From Promethearchaeota archaeon (GTDB taxonomy: Archaea; Asgardarchaeota; Lokiarchaeia; Sigyniarchaeales; SOKP01), in the NCBI GenBank assembly GCA_048937405.1, contig JBHLNF010000006.1:32001-96000 (forward strand): a stretch of 64,000 nt of DNA. The letters are read 5' to 3'. Positions within the stretch are counted from its first letter, which is position 1. Each line of letters begins with the position of its first letter. Positions 7,255 to 27,365 of the stretch are shown piece by piece. Under the pieces are notes generated by a model. It worked only from the letters and a program-made list of their open reading frames with translations. It was not told where the DNA came from and ran no database searches. Both the position numbers and the translations under genes were made by a program.

Positions 7255-9633
7255 TTAAAAATTGATTTTATTTAATTTTTGTTTTTGTTTCCAAGAAAAT
7301 CCTATAATTCCTGCTAACATTATTAGTAATATCAGAACAGTATAAGGTCCTGGAATTCCTTGTTTAGATTTTTTTATCATAACTGAAGAAAAACCTAGAT
7401 TTCCTGCATTATCTAGAGCATAGAAAGTTATATGAACATCCCCATATGATAAATCATTCCATTCATCCTCATCAATTCTTCCATTATAGGTCGTTATTGG
7501 TATGGTTGTGGATCCATTATCTAAGCTATACCAAAAAGAATCTAGATTAATTTCGGTAATTGTAATATTGTAAACTGGTGTTGCTTTAAATTGCTTTCCA
7601 GATAAAGGTTCATATATTGTAATAATTGGATCTATTGTATCTTTATAAAGTGATATTTCAGCAGTACCAATAAGACCTTCTGAATTATTGGCATAAAATC
7701 TAAGAGTAAATATGCCTTCAGCTAAATCATTCCACATGGTTTGATTAATTCGCCCAGAAGTTCCACATGTAATATTTGTTATTCCATCATTTATAGTATA
7801 CCATATAAAAATATAATCTGGACTTAAAGAAAGATTGAAAATCGGAGCAATTTCTGCAAAACCTTGATCCTCTATAGGTGAATCTATACTTATTGTTGGT
7901 GGAGTATACAGTGAAATCCAATTACATGGATAGAAGTATAATTTACCATAGCCATTATGAGGATAATTTGTTAATTTAACATTATAAACAAAAAATTGTC
8001 GTGGGTGATACAGAAATACATGAGGATATGTATATGAAGACACATTTATTTGTATATCATGATTAATAGTATTTCTAACATTATCATCAGCAGTTTCTAA
8101 AATTTCTTCTATTTTTGTATCTAACCAGGGAATATTTATTTGAGCTGAATTGTATTCTGAAGAACTATGCATCAATGGATGGAATATATTATATGGATCA
8201 ATGTAATCTGGAGTCCAACCATTAACAAAAAGACATAATTGATCTTTAAAATCACTTAATTTCATTATAAAAGTATAATAGTCAGATCCATTGTCTTCAA
8301 GGGTAATCCCAATATCTTCAAAACAATCAACTAAAAATGGATATAAATCTGCCCTAAAACCATTATAATAAGAGTAGTTAAAAGTTGCGAGATTCGCAGC
8401 ATGCCAAGCAGAATCATCACGATTATCATTAGCAGTAAGTCCAGTTGTATCGATTCCTGGATCATCAATTAAAGTTTGTCTAGCAATCGTTAAATTATAA
8501 AATGGAGCAATATCTGAGCAATTGTAGTAACCATCTCCAAAACCAGGAGATATTGGACTATAAGCCCTTATTGCATTATTATTTAGCAGCTCTTTGATAA
8601 TATATGAATAATTAATTGCATAGGAAATTGCTTTTCTCCATGTTATATTAATTACTTTATTATTCATCCCTAGATAATTATATGTTAATCCAGGAGTTGG
8701 TGCTTCGACAAGTGCAATATTCGGATCTGCTGCAAAATAAGAATAATATGACTCTAATGGGTCAACTAAATAATCGATATCTCCTGATTGTATCGCAGCA
8801 TTTCTAGCAAATGAATCTTCTATAATTACAAATTTCATTGTGTTAATATTTGCTTTTCCTTGCCAATAAGCATCATAAGCATGAAAATTTATTTCAGTAC
8901 TACTATTATATCCATCATATTCAAAAGGACCAGTTCCGATTAAATCTCCCGTAGAAAGATCAATATAATCAGTTTGGGAATGGAATGCAGGAGAAATCAT
9001 AGAAGCCCCCGTAAAACATAATAAATTTAAAAAGGGTCCATAGGGACCATTAAGATGAATTGTGATATTATATTCATTAACTATATCAATTTGCCTCATA
9101 ATGCCAGTTCCATTAGGAAATTTCCATAATATATGAGTTATTGCTGGATCCATAGTATCTGGAAGTGTTCCTGTAGCGTTCGTTAAATAGTTTATTCTAT
9201 CCAAATTCCATTTAGCAACTGTAGAATTGAATGGAGTATTGTCGTGAAAAAGTATACCTTCTCTGAGTTTAAGATGTAAAGTGATATCATCTTGCCACCA
9301 ATACGATTCAGCAAGCCAATTAATCCGCGACATATCTGGATCTGATAAATTATTTCTAAAAAGACCTTCACAAACCTGATCTATTACATTCACGGAAGAT
9401 ATATCAAAGGAATCAACAGGGTCTATAGTGACTGGTCCTGATTTTATACCAACTACAAAAGGTACATAAAAAATATCGTTAGTATCAAGCTTGAATTCAT
9501 TATCATTATTCATATTAATAATATTATTAGAATTTTGAGGGAATAATTGTAAAAAGTTAAATCCAGTTGATATTAGAAGCCCAAAAAATATATATGTAAA
9601 AATTTTTAAATCTTTTTTTAGATCATGGGTCAT
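7255..9633 (-). CDS. Family 5 (peptide/nickel) ABC substrate-binding protein with C-terminal Ig-like repeats and IPG-TM anchor
   Basis: LREGILFHDNTPFN, IGTGPF, WRKAISYAIN and GWTPDYIDP motifs; two P.I.I..P...Y..D/N.G beta repeats; GIPGPY-TM-KQKQK tail. Confidence 0.88.
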   Translation of the reverse strand: MTHDLKKDLKIFTYIFFGLLISTGFNFLQLFPQNSNNIINMNNDNEFKLDTNDIFYVPFVVGIKSGPVTIDPVDSFDISSVNVIDQVCEGLFRNNLSDPDMSRINWLAESYWWQDDITLHLKLREGILFHDNTPFNSTVAKWNLDRINYLTNATGTLPDTMDPAITHILWKFPNGTGIMRQIDIVNEYNITIHLNGPYGPFLNLLCFTGASMISPAFHSQTDYIDLSTGDLIGTGPFEYDGYNSSTEINFHAYDAYWQGKANINTMKFVIIEDSFARNAAIQSGDIDYLVDPLESYYSYFAADPNIALVEAPTPGLTYNYLGMNNKVINITWRKAISYAINYSYIIKELLNNNAIRAYSPISPGFGDGYYNCSDIAPFYNLTIARQTLIDDPGIDTTGLTANDNRDDSAWHAANLATFNYSYYNGFRADLYPFLVDCFEDIGITLEDNGSDYYTFIMKLSDFKDQLCLFVNGWTPDYIDPYNIFHPLMHSSSEYNSAQINIPWLDTKIEEILETADDNVRNTINHDIQINVSSYTYPHVFLYHPRQFFVYNVKLTNYPHNGYGKLYFYPCNWISLYTPPTISIDSPIEDQGFAEIAPIFNLSLSPDYIFIWYTINDGITNITCGTSGRINQTMWNDLAEGIFTLRFYANNSEGLIGTAEISLYKDTIDPIITIYEPLSGKQFKATPVYNITITEINLDSFWYSLDNGSTTIPITTYNGRIDEDEWNDLSYGDVHITFYALDNAGNLGFSSVMIKKSKQGIPGPYTVLILLIMLAGIIGFSWKQKQKLNKINF

Positions 9634-9702
9634 TATAAGATATTTTTATTTTTTCCTAATATATAAAGATTTGTACGAATAACCTTTATAGAGTTAAATA
9701 AA

Positions 9703-9753
9703 TAGTAGTAAAACCTAACTTTTAGTTGTAAAATTTACGAGTTACTAGTAAAA
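9703..9753. promoter_or_regulatory. Three phased direct repeats TA(G/C)T(A/T)GTAAAA at 20-bp period in a divergent intergenic region
   Basis: tagtagtaaaa at 9703, tagttgtaaaa at 9723, tactagtaaaa at 9743. Confidence 0.45.
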
Positions 9754-9910
9754 TATTTAGAGAAAAATATTTTAACTCCACTCGATTAATGAGAAGAGCT
9801 GGTTAATTCTTAGCACTTTTAGAAAAATTTATACTAAAAGATTTATCTTTAGAATTATATTGAAAGATCTATCTTTCGATTAAAAGAGATATTTTATTTA
9901 TGAACATATA

Positions 9911-17509: not shown

Positions 17510-17743
17510 GTGAAAAAAATGGCAGTTCATACATTTAATTATACTGGCTTAAAATGTCCAATGCCAGTTTTGAAAACCAAAAAGGAATTAAGAAAATTAG
17601 CTTCTGGAGATGTTCTAGAGGTAATTGCTGATGATGTCGGTGCTAAAAAGGATATACCGGCGTTAGTTAATAAATCCGGCGATGAATTAATAGAACTTAG
17701 AGAAGATAATGGAAATATTACATTTGTAATAAAAAAAGCATAA
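17510..17743 (+). CDS. tusA: Sulfur carrier TusA family
   Basis: GLKCPMPV motif, 77 aa, DD..A..DI. Confidence 0.9.
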   Translation: MKKMAVHTFNYTGLKCPMPVLKTKKELRKLASGDVLEVIADDVGAKKDIPALVNKSGDELIELREDNGNITFVIKKA

Positions 17744-17772
17744 ACTTCAAAGATTAGAGGTTCTGGAAGACT

Positions 17773-18141
17773 ATGAAAACTTATACTTTCTTTGTAAGCA
17801 CTGAGCCTTATAAATTTGAAGCTGTAGATTCATTGATTGAAATAGCAAAAGCTGTGTTAAAAAAAGGTAATTCAATTCGAGGGATATTTTTCTTTGGAAC
17901 AGGCGTATATAATCTTAAAAGGGATATAAGCTGTGGTACTTCAATTAGAAATATTCCAAGTAAAATCCAACAATTTTGTAGAGAAAATAACATTCCTGTA
18001 GCTGGCTGTAGCACTTGGGTTAGTATTACAGGATTAAAAGAACCAGAATTTATTGAAGGAGCGACTGAAGAAGGTTTAGGTGACTTTTCAAATTGGGTTA
18101 TTGAATCAAATAAATTAATTGTATTTGGAGCTGGAGGTTAA
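17773..18141 (+). CDS. dsrE: DsrE/TusD-like sulfurtransferase
   Basis: EPY, GIFFFGTGVYN, conserved Cys (GCSTW..ITG), GLGDF. Confidence 0.8.
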   Translation: MKTYTFFVSTEPYKFEAVDSLIEIAKAVLKKGNSIRGIFFFGTGVYNLKRDISCGTSIRNIPSKIQQFCRENNIPVAGCSTWVSITGLKEPEFIEGATEEGLGDFSNWVIESNKLIVFGAGG

Positions 18142-18146
18142 GAAAG

Positions 18147-18515
18147 ATGGTGGAATCAATTTTAATAATAAGTGATCAATCACCAGTTGGAAAGAATTTT
18201 GCTGCAGAAGCAATTAGGATTGGCTCTGGATTTGTAGCACTGGGAGAATATATAGACTGTAAAATTGTTTTTATGGGAGATGCTGTTTATTTATTCAATA
18301 AAAATGCTTCTCCTGAAACTGTGGGAATGGATTCAATTGATGAAATTCTTGAGATGGCAGAATTATCTGATTTAGAAGTGTATATAATTGAATCAGCTCT
18401 GAATAACGCAGGCTTGACAAAAGAGGATTTAGTAGAATATGAGAGTATGAAGATTATTACTATTGATGATCTAGTAGATCTAATAGAAAATGCGGATGTA
18501 TGTTTTAGATATTAG
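18147..18515 (+). CDS. dsrF: DsrF/TusC-like protein
   Basis: SPVG...EAIR, VFMGDAVY; lies between dsrE and dsrH. Confidence 0.75.
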   Translation: MVESILIISDQSPVGKNFAAEAIRIGSGFVALGEYIDCKIVFMGDAVYLFNKNASPETVGMDSIDEILEMAELSDLEVYIIESALNNAGLTKEDLVEYESMKIITIDDLVDLIENADVCFRY

Positions 18516-18530
18516 GAGGAGGAAAATAAT

Positions 18531-18872
18531 ATGACAGATAATCTTGATATAATTTATTTATTCGGATATAGTAGTAATACTGGAAGGCAATTAGAACGAT
18601 TATTTCCTATTATACATTTACAAAAAGTTAAAAATTCTAAAATTGGCTTAGTTTTAATTCATGATGGAGTAATTGGAATTACAACTAAAGGGAGTATTCC
18701 TAAAGAAATGGAAGACTTTCTTGATTTAAATATTGCTATGTTTGCAATGATTCCTGATTTGAAAGCACGTGGTATATCACTTGATTATATCAGTGAGAAA
18801 ATTAAACTCATCGAATATGACGATCTTATAGATATTTTGGATATAACACCAAAAATAGTATCTTGGATGTAA
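18531..18872 (+). CDS. dsrH: DsrH/TusB-like protein
   Basis: LIHDGV, DLKARGI, I.YDDLID, C-terminal SW. Confidence 0.8.
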   Translation: MTDNLDIIYLFGYSSNTGRQLERLFPIIHLQKVKNSKIGLVLIHDGVIGITTKGSIPKEMEDFLDLNIAMFAMIPDLKARGISLDYISEKIKLIEYDDLIDILDITPKIVSWM

Positions 18873-18969
18873 TGAAATTAAAAAAAAATATAAAAAAAAA
18901 TTTTTTGCAAAAATTCTGACTAATGTCAGTTTAATAATAGTTTTAAACAAATAAATAAAAAAAAAAAAG

Positions 18970-19401
18970 GTGGTATATATGGCTGAAAATGAAACAATAA
19001 ATTTTATTGTAAAGGATAAATCATTCGAAAAGTTTGCAATGATGATGATCCTTGGTACTACAGGTGATGCCATGGACACAAAAATGAATTTTTTCTTTAC
19101 TTTTTGGGGTTTAAATCTTTTAAAAAAGAAATTTAAACCAAAAGTTGCAGGGATGCCTACCCCTATGAAAGGGATGGCAGCGAAAATGTTTAGGAAGAGA
19201 ATGAAAAAATTTGGAATTGAAGATCCATGGGCAATGATTAAAGATGCAGTTGACAGCGGAAATATGAAATTATATCCATGTCAAATGACAATGGATTTAA
19301 TGGGGATTAAGAGAGAAGATTTATTTGATTGGGTTGAAGATCCTGTGGGTGCTGCCTCATTTTTAGAAATGAGTAATGGTGGAAGAATAGTTTCATTATA
19401 A
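18970..19401 (+). CDS. DsrE2-like (DrsE_2) sulfurtransferase
   Basis: FFFTFWGL, PCQMTMDLMGI, VGAASFL. Confidence 0.85.
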   Translation: MVYMAENETINFIVKDKSFEKFAMMMILGTTGDAMDTKMNFFFTFWGLNLLKKKFKPKVAGMPTPMKGMAAKMFRKRMKKFGIEDPWAMIKDAVDSGNMKLYPCQMTMDLMGIKREDLFDWVEDPVGAASFLEMSNGGRIVSL

Positions 19402-19447: not shown

Positions 19448-20005
19448 ATGTCTGATGTAGAAGAACAGACAAGAGAATATAAAACAGACGAAGATTTTGA
19501 TCAAGATTTTTTTAAAAATATTGAAAGGAGGTCAAACATTTGGCAGTGCATCCAATGTGGTACATGCACAGCAAGTTGTGAAAGTGGAAGATGGACTGCT
19601 TTGAAGACTCGTTCAATTATTAGAAAAGTTGTATTAGGAGATTTATCGGTATTAAAAGATCCAGATATTTGGTTATGTACTACATGTTATCAATGTTATG
19701 AGCGATGTCCACGAGATGTAAGACCTACAGATGTAATTATGGAATTGAGAAATTATGCTACTAAATTAGGCAATATTTCTCCCAATCATAGAGCCGTTGT
19801 AGGATATTTGAAAAACTTTGGACATGCTGTACCGATAAATGATGAGGTAAGAAAACGAAGAATCGAATTAGGGTTAGAAGAATTACCCCCTACTGCGTTT
19901 AAATTTAAACAAGAGGGGGATGATAAAGATTTAAAAAATATTGAAGAACATATGTTTGATTTACCTCCAGTCAAGGAGGATAAAAAAGAAAAGGAGGAGA
20001 CATAA
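19448..20005 (+). CDS. hdrC: Heterodisulfide reductase subunit C
   Basis: CIQCGTCTASC and WLCTTCYQCYERCPR (2x 4Fe-4S); GHAVP. Confidence 0.92.
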   Translation: MSDVEEQTREYKTDEDFDQDFFKNIERRSNIWQCIQCGTCTASCESGRWTALKTRSIIRKVVLGDLSVLKDPDIWLCTTCYQCYERCPRDVRPTDVIMELRNYATKLGNISPNHRAVVGYLKNFGHAVPINDEVRKRRIELGLEELPPTAFKFKQEGDDKDLKNIEEHMFDLPPVKEDKKEKEET

Positions 20006-20007
20006 AG

Positions 20008-20925
20008 ATGGTCAAAGAAAATACGTTTGCGTTCTTTTTAGGGTGTATAATGCCTAATCGATATCCTGCTATCGAGAAATCAACGAAATTTGTCATGGAA
20101 AAATTAGGATATGAACTCTTAGATATGGAAAGAGCAACTTGTTGTCCCGCTCCAGGCGTTTTCCGTTCTTTCAATAAAATTGATTGGATGGTAGTTGCTG
20201 CGCGAAATTTATGTATTGCAGAAAAATTAGATGCTGATATTTTAACAGTTTGTAATGGATGCTTTGGTACACTCCAAGAAGTAAATAAACATCTTAAACA
20301 AAACGAAGAACATCGTGAAATGGTCAATAAAAAACTTAAATTATTAGGGGACTATGAATTTAAAGGTACGATTAATGTACGTCATATAGCTGAAGTTTTA
20401 GGATATGAAATTGGACCATGGGGGATTGAAGATCATATAATAAGGAAAGTAAATATTAAGGCTGCTATTCATTATGGATGCCATTTCTTAAAGCCGACAA
20501 GAATTAGAGAAATTGAAAGTTCTGAAGGTCCTACGATAATTGAAGATTTTGTTGAAGTATTAGGTGTCGAATCTGTAAGATTTAATGAACAGCTTACTTG
20601 TTGCGGTGCAGGTGGTGGAGTAAAAGCTTATGATGGTAATTCAAGTATGACAATTTTTGGTGAAAAAATGAAGAATATTGATGAAGTTAAACCAGATATA
20701 ATATTAGATATCTGTCCATTTTGTCATTTACAATTTGAGACAGGACAAGATTATTTAAATAAAAATAAAGCTTGTAATTATGATTATCCTGTAATTCATA
20801 TCTCCCAGCTTGTTGCCTATTGTATGGGAATGGACCAAGAATTTATTGGTCTTCAATATCAGTTAATGGGACGAGAGTTTATTTTTGGGGGAGAACAATT
20901 AAATAAAGAAGAGGAGATTGCTTAA
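20008..20925 (+). CDS. hdrB: Heterodisulfide reductase subunit B
   Basis: Two CCG domains: FLGC...TCCPAPG...VCNGC and HYGCH...CCGAGGG...CPFCHLQF. Confidence 0.93.
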   Translation: MVKENTFAFFLGCIMPNRYPAIEKSTKFVMEKLGYELLDMERATCCPAPGVFRSFNKIDWMVVAARNLCIAEKLDADILTVCNGCFGTLQEVNKHLKQNEEHREMVNKKLKLLGDYEFKGTINVRHIAEVLGYEIGPWGIEDHIIRKVNIKAAIHYGCHFLKPTRIREIESSEGPTIIEDFVEVLGVESVRFNEQLTCCGAGGGVKAYDGNSSMTIFGEKMKNIDEVKPDIILDICPFCHLQFETGQDYLNKNKACNYDYPVIHISQLVAYCMGMDQEFIGLQYQLMGREFIFGGEQLNKEEEIA

Positions 20926-22953
20926 ATGACAGTGAAAGAAGAAAAAGTAGTTGAAGTAAATAAATTAGGTGATAAAGATAAACAAGAAGAACCAAGAATA
21001 GGTGTTTTTGTATGTCATTGTGGTCATAATATCGCAGGAACAGTTGATGTTGCTAAAGTAGCAGAATATGCTAAAGATTTACCTAATGTAGTTAAAGCTG
21101 AACATTATATGTTTATGTGTTCAAAACCAGGAGTTCAAATGCTTAAAGATTCTATTGAAGAATTAGATGTTAATAGAACAGTGGTGGCTTCATGTTCAAA
21201 AAACCAACATGGAAGGACTTTTGCTAAAGCAATAGAGGAAATGGGGCTCAATAAACATCGACATCAACAAGTTAATATTAGAGAATTTAATAGTTGGGTG
21301 CATCAGAAAGAGAAAGATAAAGCAACCGAAAAAGCTAAGAAGTTAGTAGAAGCTGGAGTAAATAGAGCAAGAAAGCTAGAGGATGTCGAGACACGGAGAA
21401 TTCCCACGACTAAAGCTGCATTAGTGATTGGTGCTGGTATTGCAGGACTTCGTGCTTCATATGATTTAGCGGAGTTAGGAATTCCAGTTTATTTAGTAGA
21501 AAAATTATCTACAATTGGAGGACATATGACACAATTAAATAAAACATTCCCAACTTTGGAATGTCCACAATGTAGTATTTCTCCATTAACTAATGGTGTA
21601 GCTAATCATCCGTTAATAGAACTCTATACTAATGCTCAAATTAAGAGTGTGGAGGGTTCAATGGGTAATTTTGAAGTTGAGGTTGAAATAAAGCCAAGAT
21701 ATGTTAAAAATAATTGTACATCTTGCGGTGAGTGTGCCTTACATTGTCCTGTGGAAGTACCTAGTGAATGGGATAGTGGAATGTCAATGAGAAACGCAAT
21801 TTATAAAGCGTATCCACAAGCAATTCCAGCTACATATGTGAGAGACAAAAATAGTTGTATTGAATGTAATACATGTATTAATGTTTGTCCCGTACAAGCT
21901 ATAGATTTTTCAATGAAAGCAGAAATTAAAACATTTAAAGTTGGTTCTATTGTTGTTGCCGCTGGCTATGATGAATATGATCCTTCAGAAATTGAAGCGT
22001 ACCATTATAGTCAAGAAGGATATGAAGATGTGATAACACAACTCAAATTGGAAAGGATGTTAGCTCCGGGTTCTCTTACCAATAGTCAAGTATTACGTCC
22101 TTCTGATGGTAAAATCCCTAAAAGTATCGTGATGATACAATGTGTAGGAAGTAGAAATGATCAAGTAGGGAATCAATATTGTACAGGAGTTTGTTGCAAA
22201 TTTGCAATTAAAAATGCTCGAATTGTAAAAGAAATGTATCCAGATTCAGATATTACAATTTGCTATATTGATGTGAGGACTCCCGGTTTAAACTTTGAAG
22301 AATTATACAAATCAGCACAGGAAGTAGGAGTAAGATTTATTAGAGGACGTCCATCAGAGATTCTTAGAGACCCTGTTTCTGGAGAATTAAGAGTAATTGT
22401 TGAAGATACTTTAAGTCAAACTCCTTTAAAATTAAAAGCAGATATGGTGGTATTATCAGCAGCAATGGTACCTCCTGAAGGTATCGGTCCGTTAGGATCA
22501 AAATTACAAGTTCTACGCTCAAAAGAAGGATTTTTAAAAGAATTTCACATTAAAATGAATCCAACTTTAAGCAGTAAAGGAGGAATATTTATAGCGGGGG
22601 CAATTCAAGGTCCTAAAGATATTTCTGAATCAGTTGCTCAAGCGGGTAATGCTGCAGCTATAGCTGCTGCTCCATTGGTAAAGGGCTATATTGAAAAAGA
22701 GATGTTAATTCCTTCAGTAGATTTTGATTTATGTGTTAGATGTGGTCTATGTAAAACTGTATGCGCTCCAGCAGCGATACAAATTAATGATGATGGAACA
22801 CCTGTGGTAAATGAGGTTGCTTGTAAATCATGTGGTATGTGTATGCCTGTCTGTCCTACGGGAGCAATTCAATTATTAAATTTTAGTGATGAACAATTAT
22901 TAGATGAAATAATCGCAATTTCAGGAGGAGGTGTTATATGCGAAAATGAGTGA
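20926..22953 (+). CDS. hdrA: Heterodisulfide reductase subunit A (flavin-bifurcating type, Cys form)
   Basis: GVFVCHCG, GAGIAG, KTFPTLEC, inserted ferredoxin, QCVGSR...YCTGVCC, GPKDI, C-terminal ferredoxin. Confidence 0.95.
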   Translation: MTVKEEKVVEVNKLGDKDKQEEPRIGVFVCHCGHNIAGTVDVAKVAEYAKDLPNVVKAEHYMFMCSKPGVQMLKDSIEELDVNRTVVASCSKNQHGRTFAKAIEEMGLNKHRHQQVNIREFNSWVHQKEKDKATEKAKKLVEAGVNRARKLEDVETRRIPTTKAALVIGAGIAGLRASYDLAELGIPVYLVEKLSTIGGHMTQLNKTFPTLECPQCSISPLTNGVANHPLIELYTNAQIKSVEGSMGNFEVEVEIKPRYVKNNCTSCGECALHCPVEVPSEWDSGMSMRNAIYKAYPQAIPATYVRDKNSCIECNTCINVCPVQAIDFSMKAEIKTFKVGSIVVAAGYDEYDPSEIEAYHYSQEGYEDVITQLKLERMLAPGSLTNSQVLRPSDGKIPKSIVMIQCVGSRNDQVGNQYCTGVCCKFAIKNARIVKEMYPDSDITICYIDVRTPGLNFEELYKSAQEVGVRFIRGRPSEILRDPVSGELRVIVEDTLSQTPLKLKADMVVLSAAMVPPEGIGPLGSKLQVLRSKEGFLKEFHIKMNPTLSSKGGIFIAGAIQGPKDISESVAQAGNAAAIAAAPLVKGYIEKEMLIPSVDFDLCVRCGLCKTVCAPAAIQINDDGTPVVNEVACKSCGMCMPVCPTGAIQLLNFSDEQLLDEIIAISGGGVICENE

Positions 22954-23398
22954 ATGTGAATATATTGAACCAGAAGTTCTTGAAAAGATGGAAAATATTG
23001 TAGTTTTTATGTGTAATGAATGCGGACAAGGTTCAGCAAACACAGCTGGAGTTGCCCGGATGGCATATAATCCTGCAATTCGAATTGTTCGAGTACAATG
23101 TACTGGTCAAGTCGGTCCTATTCAGATTATGGATGCCTTGAACAACGGGGCAGATGCTGTTGCCTGTGTTGGCTGTTGTTTGGGAGCATGTCATTTCTTT
23201 AATGGGAATATTTTATCAATGCATAGAATAAAATTAATGAAAAAGTTATTTAAAGAATTAGGTTATAGCGATCAGTTTGTTAATCAATATACTTCTCGAG
23301 CTGCTGAAGGAGAAACTGCAGTTGGAGATTTTGATGATATTGTAGAACGATTAGCAACTGCAATAAGAGAGGAGGAGACGTTCAAAGATGGATGTTAG
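22946..23398 (+). CDS. mvhD: MvhD-type [2Fe-2S] subunit
   Basis: FMCNEC, VRVQCTG, GADAV..GC..G.CHF..GN; ATG at 22946 overlapping the hdrA end is preferred over the track's GTG at 22931. Confidence 0.85.
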   Translation: MSECEYIEPEVLEKMENIVVFMCNECGQGSANTAGVARMAYNPAIRIVRVQCTGQVGPIQIMDALNNGADAVACVGCCLGACHFFNGNILSMHRIKLMKKLFKELGYSDQFVNQYTSRAAEGETAVGDFDDIVERLATAIREEETFKDGC

Positions 23399-24629
23399 AG
23401 TATTTCAGTTTAATGGATGTAATAAATGCTTCAATGAGACGATTCTTTTAGAAGGAGAATCAATGTATGAGGTGGAGTTTATAAACAATCCGAAAGAATG
23501 GAAGGAGAAAAAAACAGATGTATCAATTATTACTGGATTTTTACTTCCTGAAAACAAGGATGCATTAAATAAAATTAAAAAAAATTCTGAAAAGGTGATT
23601 GCTTATGGAAATTGTGCTACTACAGGAGGGATTTTTGCTCTTGCAAATCAAAAAGGTCATGATGTATCTCCATTAAATAATATCATTGAAAATCCAATTA
23701 ATATTAATGGTTGTTTAGGGGAAATTGAAGAATTAAAATTAGAAATTGAAGATAATGATCTCCCAAAATTAAAAAATCTCTGTATTGTATGCGGAAGACG
23801 AAAAACTTGTGATTACTTAGATGATGTAAAACGACAAATTGAATTAGAAGATACTGAGACATGTTTTAATGACCAAGGATATCTTTGTAATGGTTTTATC
23901 TCCAAAGAATGTAAAGAACGATGTATTGACTATAATGCTCCCTGTAGAGGTTGCAAACCAATTGTTGAACGTTCTGGGGTCAGAATGTTAGGCATGTTTG
24001 GAACTCTTATGGGAAATATTGAAGTTGCGACTGAGCATTCTGAAAAGGGAGCAACTGATAAATTAGCAGACAAGGATGATGATGTGACTGCAGGTCTACC
24101 CGATATAGTAGGTAATTTCTTTAGATTTACTTTGCCAACATCAGGATTGCCAAAAGGTCGAATTCCTTCAAATGGAAACATATTAGAAGATGTTTTTATA
24201 GGAAGACTTATTGAAGAATTACCTCTAATTTCTGGATTATTAGGGGGGGATCATTCAATCTCATTAACATTAAAGATAATTGAAACCTATGAAGACGCTA
24301 ATAATATTGAAGTAAGTGAAAAAACAAAAAATTATCGAAATCAACTATTAAAGTTGGAAATTGAACTTCAAAAGGCAATTCAGAATAAAGATTCAGAAAA
24401 ATATAAGAAAATCACTGATGAAATTCGTAAGATTGCTGGAAATATGAATTTATCTAATCTGTCCTTTGGAGGATTTCGGTCACAAATTGATGATAATGAT
24501 AATTTTGAAGAATATCAAACCCACCCTTTTGAAGTGGTTGAAGGAACATATAAGAATGGTTCAGTTGAATTTACAATTGATCCAATTGGTATTGTAAAAA
24601 AAATTAAAATTAAAGAGGGAAATGCATGA
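23388..24629 (+). CDS. MvhG-like hydrogenase small-subunit homolog with a C-terminal extension resembling a Cys-less large-subunit fragment
   Basis: GCNKC, GNCATTGGI, GC and C..C...CF...G.LC.G...C...C....PCRGC cluster motifs; then FIGRLIEELPLISGLLGGDH. Confidence 0.75.
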   Translation: MDVRVFQFNGCNKCFNETILLEGESMYEVEFINNPKEWKEKKTDVSIITGFLLPENKDALNKIKKNSEKVIAYGNCATTGGIFALANQKGHDVSPLNNIIENPININGCLGEIEELKLEIEDNDLPKLKNLCIVCGRRKTCDYLDDVKRQIELEDTETCFNDQGYLCNGFISKECKERCIDYNAPCRGCKPIVERSGVRMLGMFGTLMGNIEVATEHSEKGATDKLADKDDDVTAGLPDIVGNFFRFTLPTSGLPKGRIPSNGNILEDVFIGRLIEELPLISGLLGGDHSISLTLKIIETYEDANNIEVSEKTKNYRNQLLKLEIELQKAIQNKDSEKYKKITDEIRKIAGNMNLSNLSFGGFRSQIDDNDNFEEYQTHPFEVVEGTYKNGSVEFTIDPIGIVKKIKIKEGNA

Positions 24630-27094
24630 GTTTTGAATTATTAAGAGAAGAGATTGTAGATGCTGGTCTATGTCAAGGATGTGGTTTATGTGCTGGTTCA
24701 TGTAAACATATTGAAATGGATGTAAGACGTCCAACTTTAAAAGACTATTGTATATTGGAAAGAGGAGGCCAAGATTGTGGAAAGTGCTATCAAAATTGCC
24801 CTCAAATAATCCAGAAGAAATTTAAAGAAAAACAACCTCTTGCAATTTATTCACTAAGAAGCAAAGATCCAGAAATTATAGATAAAGCATCAAGTGGGGG
24901 TTTTGTTACTTCTTTTACTAAAGAATTGCTAGAAAATGACACGCTTAAAGAAGTTGTTATGGTCCAAGAAGAAGATGAGAAACCAGTTGCTGAGATAGTT
25001 TCTGATCCTAAAGAAGTTATTAAGAAAGCAGGTGTTATTTATGGTAGATCTGGTGTGCTACAAAAATTAGTAGAACTCACTGGTGAAACATTTGACCCAA
25101 TCGGTATTGTCGGTGTACCATGTGAAATACGTGGAGCTGCTGAACTTGAAGAAGAAATGAATCGAAATATTTTAAAAATTGGATTGTTTTGTAGTTCTCA
25201 AATGAGAACTAAGCAAACAGATAAAGGTTTAGTATGTTCTCCTTGTTGTAATGGATGCCCTTCTGGTGTTAATGCTCAAGGATACATTTCATTAATACGT
25301 CAAGGACAATATCAAGATGCCGTAGATTTGATTAGAGAAAGCAATCCACTTCCATCCATATGTGGGAGAATTTGTACTAATGAGTGTGAACATGGTTGTA
25401 CTTTAATAGGAGACGACCATCCTGTTGCAATCCGTGAGTTAAAGAAATTTGTTACTGAATGGGAAATTGAAAGAGCAAAGAATACATCAAAAACAACAGC
25501 TAAATTAAATAGAGATGCGAAAAAAGTAGCGATTATCGGATCTGGACCAGCTGGATTAACTGCAGCGTATTTTTTAAGAAGAATGGGATATGCACCCACT
25601 ATCTTTGAGAAGACAGATCAAACAGGTGGGATGCTAAGATTTGGTGTACCACAATTTAGGTTACCTAATTATGTACTAGATTATGATGTAGGCAGAATCA
25701 TAGATTCCGGTGTCGAAGTAAAACTTAACAAACCATTAGGTCCTGAGATGACTATTGAAGATTTGAAAAATGAAGGATTTGAGGCTATATTTATTGCCAC
25801 TGGACAATATAAACCTCGTACCTTACACTTAGAAGGTGAAGATTTACCAAATGTGCATGTAGCAATTCATTTTCTAATGGATAGAAAATATCGATACTGG
25901 GAAAATAAAGAAGAATTTAAAGGTAAAACTTTAGGCATAATTGGAGGAGGTGCTGTTGCAGTTGATGTTGCTCAAACGGCTCTTAGGTTAGGAGCTAAAA
26001 AGGTTCATCTTGTTGATATTATGTCAGAAGAACAACTCGAATTGGTCTTAAGAGACATTCCTGAAACTGAAATGGAGTTTATAAATTATCACTTCGCGAC
26101 TTCCACTTCCAAAATTACTCAGGATAAAGATGAAAAATTAGTTTTAAATTGTTATAATATTGAATGGGGTACTCCTGATAAGAATGGAAGAAGACCGTTA
26201 AATAAAATTGAAGGATCAGATTATGAAATTCTTGTTGATTCTATTGTAATAGCGGTTGGTCAAGCAGTAGATTTTGAGCAAATAGATGCAGCAACAAATA
26301 ATGAATTAGAAAAAGAACGAAATAGAATTAAAGTAAATGAAATAACATTTGAAACTAATATCCCTGGGGTTTTTGCTGGCGGAGATATTATCAGTAATTC
26401 TAAAGCTGTGGCTATTGCTGCTATAGCTCACGGAAAGGAAGCTGCATTTTCAATAGACAGATATCTAAAGGGAGAAAACTTGATAGATGGAAGATTTAGG
26501 CGAGAGAATTCTTTTTTCACGGGGCCTAAGAAACCCCCAAAAGATTATTCATTAAAACCAGAAACATTAGACCAAGCCACTGAAGAAAAAAGTTGGAGTT
26601 TTGAGGAGATTGATAAAATATTCAATGAGGATATGGCTTTACAAGAAGCGCGAAGATGTCTAAGTTGTAATCATTTCTGTACTCATTGTCAAGATTTCCC
26701 TGCAATATATTCAGACCTTACTGCGGGTGAAGTAGGATCAAAAGAGGGCTTTACTACAGTGGTAGTTTGGACGGAGCGTGGCAAAGCGCTTATTGAAAAA
26801 GCAATTAAAAAAGGTTTATTCGAGCAAGGAAAAGTTGATGAGAAAGAATTGAAAAATGCAATTAATCTAAAATCAAAACGTGAATTAATGAACTTTGAAA
26901 AACCCCCTAGACAACAGGTTTTAGATTATATATCACTGCAAGGTCCTAGCACTATTACAGACATTTCAAAACAAACAGGTCTTGAACCGAGGAAAGCCAG
27001 ATATGAAGCTCTCCGATTAGTTCAATTAATGGAATTAGAAATGAAGACTGAACCTGAAATGGAGGAACCAATATTTTCTATTATATGTGAATAA
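24626..27094 (+). CDS. FrhB-family protein with an inserted GltD/NfnB-type FAD/NAD(P) oxidoreductase module and a C-terminal wHTH
   Basis: CQGCGLCAGSC, SSGGFVT, VGVPCE, IGLFC | CCNGCP...NPLPSICGRIC...GSGPAG...GGGAVAVD...FAGGD...EARRCLSC | CTHCQDF...GS..GFTTVVV.TERG | helix-turn-helix tail. Confidence 0.85.
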   Translation: MSFELLREEIVDAGLCQGCGLCAGSCKHIEMDVRRPTLKDYCILERGGQDCGKCYQNCPQIIQKKFKEKQPLAIYSLRSKDPEIIDKASSGGFVTSFTKELLENDTLKEVVMVQEEDEKPVAEIVSDPKEVIKKAGVIYGRSGVLQKLVELTGETFDPIGIVGVPCEIRGAAELEEEMNRNILKIGLFCSSQMRTKQTDKGLVCSPCCNGCPSGVNAQGYISLIRQGQYQDAVDLIRESNPLPSICGRICTNECEHGCTLIGDDHPVAIRELKKFVTEWEIERAKNTSKTTAKLNRDAKKVAIIGSGPAGLTAAYFLRRMGYAPTIFEKTDQTGGMLRFGVPQFRLPNYVLDYDVGRIIDSGVEVKLNKPLGPEMTIEDLKNEGFEAIFIATGQYKPRTLHLEGEDLPNVHVAIHFLMDRKYRYWENKEEFKGKTLGIIGGGAVAVDVAQTALRLGAKKVHLVDIMSEEQLELVLRDIPETEMEFINYHFATSTSKITQDKDEKLVLNCYNIEWGTPDKNGRRPLNKIEGSDYEILVDSIVIAVGQAVDFEQIDAATNNELEKERNRIKVNEITFETNIPGVFAGGDIISNSKAVAIAAIAHGKEAAFSIDRYLKGENLIDGRFRRENSFFTGPKKPPKDYSLKPETLDQATEEKSWSFEEIDKIFNEDMALQEARRCLSCNHFCTHCQDFPAIYSDLTAGEVGSKEGFTTVVVWTERGKALIEKAIKKGLFEQGKVDEKELKNAINLKSKRELMNFEKPPRQQVLDYISLQGPSTITDISKQTGLEPRKARYEALRLVQLMELEMKTEPEMEEPIFSIICE

Positions 27095-27128: not shown

Positions 27129-27365
27129 ATGAATTATGATATGGAATTAAACGTCTGTGGGTCAGTATGTCCTGTTCCTGCTTTAAAAACTAAAAAACAA
27201 CTCATGAAAATGAGACCAGGTACAGTTTTAAAAGTTATTACCGATTACAAACCCGCAAGTGAATCTGTTCCACGAGATTTAGCAAAAACAAAACATAAAC
27301 ATTTAGGAACAGAATTCATTGATGATGATGAAATCTGGTATATGTATTTTGAAGCAGTAAAGTAA
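27129..27365 (+). CDS. tusA: Second TusA family sulfur carrier
   Basis: GSVCPVPA motif, LKVITDY, 78 aa. Confidence 0.85.
   Translation: MNYDMELNVCGSVCPVPALKTKKQLMKMRPGTVLKVITDYKPASESVPRDLAKTKHKHLGTEFIDDDEIWYMYFEAVK

Follow-up and report, generated by a model that had tools for sequence, protein, structure and literature searches.

A predicted nickel-free relic of the [NiFe]-hydrogenase large subunit, fused to an MvhG-type small subunit in a heterodisulfide reductase operon of Asgard archaea

A 64,000 nt stretch of the genome of a Promethearchaeota archaeon of the Lokiarchaeia (contig JBHLNF010000006.1, positions 32,001 to 96,000; hereafter the window) carries on its forward strand, at 23388..24629, a gene for a 413 aa protein in which an MvhG-type hydrogenase small subunit runs on into a 157-residue extension. 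Judged by predicted fold and by descent, this extension is a miniaturised homologue of the [NiFe]-hydrogenase large subunit, without any of the cysteines that hold the metal centre. We think it likely that the fusion protein is a nickel-free derivative of the Mvh type (group 3c), acting as an iron–sulfur donor arm that an FrhB-like flavoprotein would feed within a complex of HdrABC, MvhD and FrhB; it would probably pass on electrons from this neighbouring flavoprotein rather than use hydrogen. The window is AT-rich (27–34 % GC) and lies on contig C19 of a 4.47 Mb genome in 29 contigs.

The open reading frame, and the two segments of protein quoted in a preliminary description of this DNA, are present as given there: DVFIGRLIEE...NQLL occupies residues 267–320, and the C-terminal hairpin VVEGTYKNGSVEFTIDPIGIVKKIKI residues 383–408. 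An AlphaFold2 (AF2) model of the full-length protein, built from a 45-sequence alignment, reached a pLDDT of 90.8 and a pTM of 0.90. Pfam recognized a single domain in the whole protein, Oxidored_q6 (PF01058), at residues 24–109. A sequence search of the PDB aligned residues 93–256 with MvhG/VhuG (9sw2_E and 5odc_E), reaching their C-terminal ‘VGTFYTFTLP’ end, and structural superposition with VIA-align 2 placed model residues 1–259 on residues 2–299 of 5odc_E (Z 21.4, 244 residues). Because the matches to MvhG/VhuG in both sequence and structure end at about residue 256, we set the start of the extension at residue 257 (nt 24156), slightly upstream of position 24180, where the preliminary description, correct as to the extension itself, had begun it.

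The small-subunit module (residues 1–256, 23388..24155) is intact and of the MvhG type, with ligand cysteines sufficient for the proximal, medial and distal [4Fe–4S] clusters. Eleven cysteines are invariant in the 45-member alignment (C11, C14, C76, C109, C132, C135, C159, C167, C179, C186 and C189), and C175 is nearly so. The proximal-cluster motif GCPP (23712–23723, residues 109–112) reads GCLG in Lokiarchaeia members of the family and is still GCPP in Thorarchaeota-type members. The module is only about 30 % identical to the other small subunits of the genome, and so we regard it as an old, distant paralogue of them; against the NCBIfam VhuG equivalog model the fusion protein scored 51.6 bits, below the cut-off of 450 bits.

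The extension (residues 257–413, 24156..24626; extension residues 1–157) could not be assigned by conventional means. Pfam and NCBIfam returned nothing meaningful for it, with the large-subunit family PF00374 giving no match even at an E-value of 10; one homologue bears a precomputed PF28234 tag. A phmmer search with the extension alone against 1.8 billion representatives produced 21 matches, none of which was a large subunit: almost all were members or fragments of the fusion family, and two weak ones look spurious. A PDB profile search with the alignment of the whole fusion was dominated by the small-subunit columns and was uninformative about the extension. As single-sequence searching is too weak for the link between the extension and the large subunit, profile and fold methods were needed.

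Three sequence comparisons agree on that link. BLASTP of the extension against the group-3 large subunit of the same genome (encoded on contig C19 at about 108 kb in the coordinate frame of the window, that is, outside it) gave an ungapped alignment of 60 residues, extension 10–69 on large-subunit 39–98, with 27 % identity and an E-value of 5e-5. A hidden Markov model of the extension family matched 120 Asgard large subunits in the identical register, with E-values of 2e-6 to 5e-5 among the best matches listed. Alignment of the extension profile with a profile of 24 large subunits by hhalign gave a probability of 85.8 % and an E-value of 5.4e-6 over 118 columns, extension 6–130 on large-subunit 35–185, against 2.1 % and 0.022 for a column-reversed control. 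Two segments are thereby equated: the L1 helix region (24171..24365) with large-subunit residues 35–99, and a helix followed by a ‘GNxNLSNxxFGG’ loop (24396..24479) with residues of about 126–159, in which G148 and FGG155–157 are kept. Residues that are invariant in large subunits are also invariant in the relic family, namely G60, E75, R90, G148, G156 and the glutamate E359 of the EAPRG motif; the equivalents of Gly60, Glu75 and Arg90 are G287, E302 and R317 of the fusion protein. Family-invariant residues in the region of the loop are G351, S356, N357 and G362.

The fold search was decisive. Modelled on its own from a 49-row alignment, the extension was predicted by AF2 as four helices and a three-stranded beta unit (pLDDT 94, pTM 0.88). 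Nearly all of the best Foldseek matches to this model were [NiFe] large subunits or their homologues in complex I, formate hydrogenlyase and membrane-bound hydrogenase; the E-values were weak (at least 0.04), and probabilities rose to 1.00. When the chains found by Foldseek were superposed with VIA-align 2, they gave Z scores of 11–14.3, with 149–157 of the 157 residues aligned at a root-mean-square deviation of 2.3–3.3 Å. A search independent of Foldseek, across 48,161 PDB representatives, filled ranks 1–15 exclusively with [NiFe] large-subunit and complex-I-type chains (Z 9.7–13.5, about 150 of the 157 residues), among them FrhA, [NiFeSe] and other large subunits, MvhA, HycE, NuoD/49-kDa, MbsL, HyhL, MbhL, NdhH and HucL. 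The cysteine-less, miniature large-subunit homologue that the preliminary description had proposed behind MvhG is thus borne out by comparison with large-subunit profiles and structures.

The same description had taken the extreme C-terminus for the N-terminal RxEGH hairpin of the large subunit, and the relic as possibly permuted; this part did not hold. In hhalign comparisons the hairpin (24534..24611) had a single profile match, the ‘EAPRG’ hairpin at large-subunit residues 357–382 (VIEAPRGTLIHNYHLNKNNSIDRIKL), with an E-value of 0.0027 when compared with that region alone and 0.043 when compared with the full profile, versus 0.32 over 14 unrelated columns against residues 1–40, and permutation was rejected. 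The glutamate of the motif is kept and its Pro-Arg-Gly is lost, reading TYK in the relic from the window; the arginine is the conserved one sited above the Ni–Fe site. Sequential structure alignments cover large-subunit chains of 420–450 residues between residues ~38 and ~380–400 and, taken with the match of the hairpin, lead us to regard the relic as collinear with the large subunit, with internal deletions. What is kept, some 150 residues, corresponds to large-subunit residues ~35–99, ~126–160 and ~357–382 and forms the four-helix bundle and the EAPRG hairpin; what is deleted comprises the RxEGH hairpins (1–34), a middle domain of about 190 residues and the C-terminal ~50 residues with the DPCxxCxxH motif. 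In [NiFe] hydrogenases the retained elements surround the active site beside the proximal cluster.

All four cysteine ligands of nickel and iron are lost, two by substitution and two by deletion. The RICGLC of the large subunit, an instance of the nickel-binding RxCGxC motif, aligns with LLGGDH (24237..24254), and the ungapped BLASTP register puts G286 and H289 at the cysteine positions; the replacement had been described before as GLLGGD, one residue out of register. Among 223 family members with a full extension, cysteine occurs at neither position: the first is G in 191, Y in 29 and F in three, and the second is K in 90, H in 85 and R in 21, with N among the other residues. The extension is entirely free of cysteine in 178 of the 223 members, including that of the window. 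In Thorarchaeota-type members the site has the pattern R-[IV]-[FY]-G-x-[RK], so that the ancestral R-x-C-G-x-C frame can still be seen. The other two ligands are gone with the C-terminal DPCxxCxxH helix, which also holds the maturation cleavage site, as the protein ends at the equivalent of large-subunit residue ~382. With all four ligands lost, the fusion protein almost certainly cannot bind the NiFe(CN)2CO cofactor, and almost certainly can neither split nor use H2. The two genuine large subunits of the genome are encoded elsewhere, each with its own adjacent small subunit.

The relic is maintained under purifying selection rather than decaying. Comparison with 26 orthologues gave dN/dS ratios of 0.06–0.23 for the extension and 0.06–0.20 for the small-subunit part, and in an 18-member alignment that includes extension-only rows all invariant columns fall in the extension. 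Of the 399 genomes of the phylum, 79 encode a family member, mostly in a frame of about 412–450 aa (411–425 aa for the protein in Asgard genomes) and always as a fusion; neither phmmer nor the genome scan revealed a stand-alone or split relic, the short matches being fragments at contig ends. A scan seeded with a motif across 185,579 species genomes recovered 65 loci. Every one belongs to an Asgard-type or ‘uncultured archaeon’ record, and the organisms include Ca. Harpocratesius, Ca. Sigynarchaeum, Thorarchaeota and the cultured Promethearchaeum syntrophicum MK-D1 (DSAG12_01149) and Ca. Lokiarchaeum ossiferum. The sequencing runs listed as containing the sequence were DNA metagenomes of sediment and mangrove, with no RNA run among them.

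The fusion gene lies within a co-oriented, tightly packed operon on the forward strand, with a gene for an Lrp/AsnC regulator diverging upstream. Sulfur-carrier genes assigned by Pfam come first (17510..19401): TusA at the head of the operon (start 17510), DsrE (17773), a second DsrE (18147), DsrH (18531) and DsrE2 (18970). They are followed at 19448..22953 by HdrC (start 19448), HdrB (20008) and HdrA (20926), recognized by Pfam CCG, Fer4 and FAD-binding domains and by synteny, and by the [2Fe–2S] connector MvhD (22931..23398; Pfam FlpD, E 6e-32), which overlaps the start of the fusion gene. Downstream, a gene for an FrhB-like flavoprotein of 822 aa (24626..27094) overlaps the stop codon of the fusion gene with its start; a GltD/NfnB-like NAD(P)H module is inserted in this protein (FrhB_FdhB_N at residues 75–145, Fer4_20 and Pyr_redox_2 at 189–603, FrhB_FdhB_C at 667–739). 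A second TusA gene (27129..27365; Pfam TusA, E 3e-18) ends the operon, which is thus bracketed by two TusA genes, with DsrE/DsrE/DsrH/DsrE2 preceding hdrCBA.

The order HdrC–HdrB–HdrA–MvhD–fusion–FrhB was invariant in all eight distant genomes compared, three of them closed, with genes that abut or overlap. MvhD always stands immediately upstream of the fusion gene and the FrhB-like gene always after it, and no catalytic large subunit adjoins the fusion gene in the window or in these eight genomes, in most of which DsrE/DsrH genes also lie near the operon. Given this company of TusA, DsrE and DsrH genes, the substrate of HdrB may be a persulfide or disulfide carried on a protein instead of CoM-S-S-CoB.

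The GltD module is complete in the window, where it sits between the N- and C-terminal halves of FrhB, and is found as a partial match of about 260–280 aa (34–36 % identity) in MK-D1 and L. ossiferum. The insert was not found in the Thorarchaeota loci; in one of these (L042) the FrhB-like orthologue (8776–9846) is plain and 356 aa long. Since FrhB of Thorarchaeota is without the insert, the constant partners of the fusion are MvhD and FrhB, and the predicted electron donor may differ between lineages along with the GltD variation.

The relic is the remnant of an adjacent large-subunit gene, fused at the C-terminus of MvhG, and the layout of the fusion preserves the gene order mvhD–mvhG–mvhA. 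The arrangement that we propose, from the docking of the relic through the physical complex to the electron path with its donor and acceptor, would run as follows. The relic would pack in cis on the small subunit, at the former place of the large subunit, where it would stabilize and shield the proximal cluster and present a conserved polar surface. The fusion protein (MvhG::dLSU, for the degenerate large subunit) would form the iron–sulfur arm of a complex with HdrABC, MvhD and FrhB, in which FrhB, with GltD in Lokiarchaeia, would substitute for H2 oxidation. Reducing equivalents would enter through the FrhB-like flavoprotein, from NAD(P)H by way of the GltD module in Lokiarchaeia and from F420H2 or a similar carrier in Thorarchaeota, and electrons would then reach the bifurcating FAD of HdrA via MvhD. 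A disulfide or persulfide, perhaps supplied by the co-encoded TusA/DsrE relay, would be the substrate reduced by HdrBC. The nearest functional precedent, backed by structure and biochemistry, is the Elp-Hdr system of Methanothermobacter marburgensis, where Mvh gives way under nickel limitation to ElpA (an FdhA cut short and without cofactor), the FrhB-like ElpB and the MvhD-like ElpC (PMC12350162; Nature 2025); the Asgard arm would be its counterpart derived from a hydrogenase.

Several points weigh against this model. The seating of the relic at the canonical large-subunit site and the contact between FrhB and the fusion are themselves predictions. MvhD docks at the distal-cluster end of MvhG, and FrhB at the distal end of FrhG, and the two cannot share one end. 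Furthermore, in solved Fdh/Elp-Hdr complexes electrons pass from the FrhB-like subunit to the N-terminal clusters of HdrA and on to MvhD, with the truncated catalytic subunit off the main path (PMC12350162). For this last reason the role of the fusion protein as a ‘wire’ carries real doubt.

The foremost alternative builds on both the crowding at the distal end and the Elp-Hdr precedent. It holds that the fusion protein is a side-arm or scaffold only, its clusters leading nowhere or to another outlet (a ferredoxin or polyferredoxin, for instance), while electrons run from FrhB through the N-terminal clusters of HdrA to MvhD and the relic does no more than hold the small subunit in its fold. 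However, for a protein that serves as scaffold alone, three invariant sets of cluster cysteines and strong selection throughout would come at a high cost, and the fusion gene, placed after mvhD and before frhB, overlaps both. We therefore consider such a passive role unlikely, although a serious contender.

A more specific form of the donor-arm model, which we put forward tentatively and think somewhat improbable, makes use of the small size of the relic. The 157-residue stump would leave the proximal [4Fe–4S] cluster exposed and turn the small subunit into a ‘backwards’, two-ended wire, with FrhB (or FrhB::GltD) or a sulfur carrier docking on the polar face of the relic and exchanging electrons with the proximal cluster. 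Such an arrangement could constitute a new, Asgard-specific, nickel-free entry port for flavin-based electron bifurcation.

It is also conceivable that the relic and the proximal cluster form a new reactive or binding site. In complex I, the cysteine-less NuoD and NuoB together form the quinone site at cluster N2. A pocket of this kind might here accept a small substrate or carrier, such as a persulfide bound to the TusA or DsrE proteins encoded in the operon. Family-invariant polar residues do cluster in the relic (R273, E276/E277, E299, E302, R317, S356, N357 and D398), and its structural neighbours include NuoD, HycE and MbsL, the large-subunit homologue of a sulfane-sulfur reductase. However, several of these residues (G, E, R) never vary in true large subunits either and may be structural, and the sulfur-relay genes are more simply tied to HdrB, which leaves a new site with a small chance only.

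Far less probable is that the extension is an unrelated helical bundle with a hairpin, resembling the large subunit by convergence. Helical bundles can reach a VIA-align 2 Z of about 13 by chance, a known caveat of the method, and the phmmer and PF00374 searches were blank with respect to large subunits. However, generic four-helix bundles first appeared at rank 16 of the fold search, with a Z of only 5.4 and about 85 residues covered, behind 15 consecutive members of the superfamily; the sequence evidence is independent, holds the same register and includes retained large-subunit-invariant residues; and the gene order is that of mvhG–mvhA. The idea that the protein is still a hydrogenase, recruiting one of the two bona fide large subunits of the genome or binding metal through ligands other than cysteine, can be practically dismissed, as each of those large subunits has its own small-subunit partner, the relic and small subunit are predicted as one compact body (pTM 0.90), and the relic has no cysteine, C-terminal motif or protease cleavage region.

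Two further hydrogenase-related loci of the genome deserve mention. The second [NiFe] large subunit (435 aa; locus L001, G000:C26:119785-123021, minus strand, about L001 400–560) ends short of its C-terminal metal-binding motif. A small VhuU-like open reading frame, MSDIPEGVVNVLEMIVRCYDC-TGA-LSCAAH..., begins about 40 nt further downstream, and its in-frame TGA, at the DPUxxCxxH position, points to a split selenocysteine [NiFeSe] hydrogenase like the Vhu of Methanococcus. Selenoproteins of the split [NiFeSe] hydrogenase kind have been reported from Lokiarchaeota. The other locus encodes a 472 aa small-subunit homologue (L007, G000:C26:142939-146409; open reading frame 1450–2868), with PF01058 at residues 18–174 and an apparently duplicated C-terminal Fe–S part. 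Its gene diverges from that of an HdrC-like protein, and no large subunit lies in the neighbourhood, the closest match to PF00374 being about 22 kb away. Compared with the relic, the protein gave an E-value of 0.075, which is not significant. We regard it as a possible further ‘orphan’ small subunit.

In searches of 8.4 million papers and preprints we found no description of this fusion between a small subunit and a large-subunit relic. Members of the family are labelled ‘F420-reducing hydrogenase gamma subunit’ (FrhG), ‘NuoB family protein’ or ‘hypothetical’. Such annotation is misleading, as metabolic reconstructions of Asgard archaea and scenarios of eukaryogenesis use annotated Hdr-Mvh genes to infer hydrogen dependence or production. 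Read as a nickel-free, H2-blind module, the family gives a different meaning to one of the most conserved Hdr operons of Loki- and Thorarchaeota, to which NAD(P)H or F420H2 would supply the electrons instead of H2. If the fusion protein does serve as a two-ended wire and entry port, part of the argument ‘Mvh-Hdr, therefore H2-dependent’ for these lineages rests on a protein that never touches H2. Among derivatives of the [NiFe] large subunit, the relic is also the smallest that we found, and it shows which 150 or so residues are kept once catalysis is abandoned.

Of the characterized systems, the HdrABC-MvhAGD complex and its VhuAG counterpart (PDB 5ODC and 9SW2) are among the closest. The small-subunit module superposes on the whole of MvhG with its three-cluster cysteines kept, the fusion gene follows mvhD in an hdrCBA operon, and the relic has the core fold of MvhA (Z 12.2, 150 residues, chain residues 38–400). 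Unlike MvhA, however, the relic is cut from about 450 to 157 residues, fused, and stripped of the four metal-binding cysteines, the RxEGH hairpins and the DPCxxCxxH end, and an FrhB-like gene stands where mvhA would continue. The F420-reducing hydrogenase FrhABG resembles the locus in a different way, as a small subunit is there followed in the operon by the FrhB flavoprotein and the two work together in Frh; in structure, few chains match the relic as well as FrhA does (Z 13.5–13.6). However, FrhA is active and the C-terminal end of FrhG differs from that of MvhG, whereas the fusion operon has no catalytic subunit and, in Lokiarchaeia, bears a GltD insert in FrhB.

Both large-subunit descendants without cysteine ligands and truncated catalytic relics in Hdr arms are already known. 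The former include NuoD/Nqo4/49-kDa, NdhH and the MbsL of membrane-bound sulfane-sulfur reductase (MBS), which derive from the [NiFe] large subunit, have lost the nickel ligands, pair with a small-subunit homologue that carries the proximal-type cluster, and come close to the relic in structure (Z 9.8–12). These are separate, full-size subunits (about 370–600 aa) of membrane complexes with a new catalytic pocket, whereas the relic has 157 aa, is of a soluble type, is fused in cis and derives from group 3. The latter are represented by ElpABC-HdrABC, which shares with the proposed Asgard arm a nickel-independent route into Hdr that combines a flavoprotein of the FrhB/FdhB type, a connector resembling MvhD and a truncated, cofactor-less relic; judged by Pfam domains and synteny, all three Elp-type components are encoded together at the Asgard locus. 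However, ElpA is a remnant of FdhA, the molybdopterin formate dehydrogenase, and the Asgard relic is a homologue of the [NiFe] large subunit, which makes the Asgard arm an analogue of Elp and not a member. Elp-Hdr has no small-subunit wire and no fusion, and occurs in methanogens, whereas the fusion family was found only in Asgard archaea. The relic adds to ElpA a second, independent example of how a catalytic subunit in the donor arm of Hdr can be cut down to a stump.

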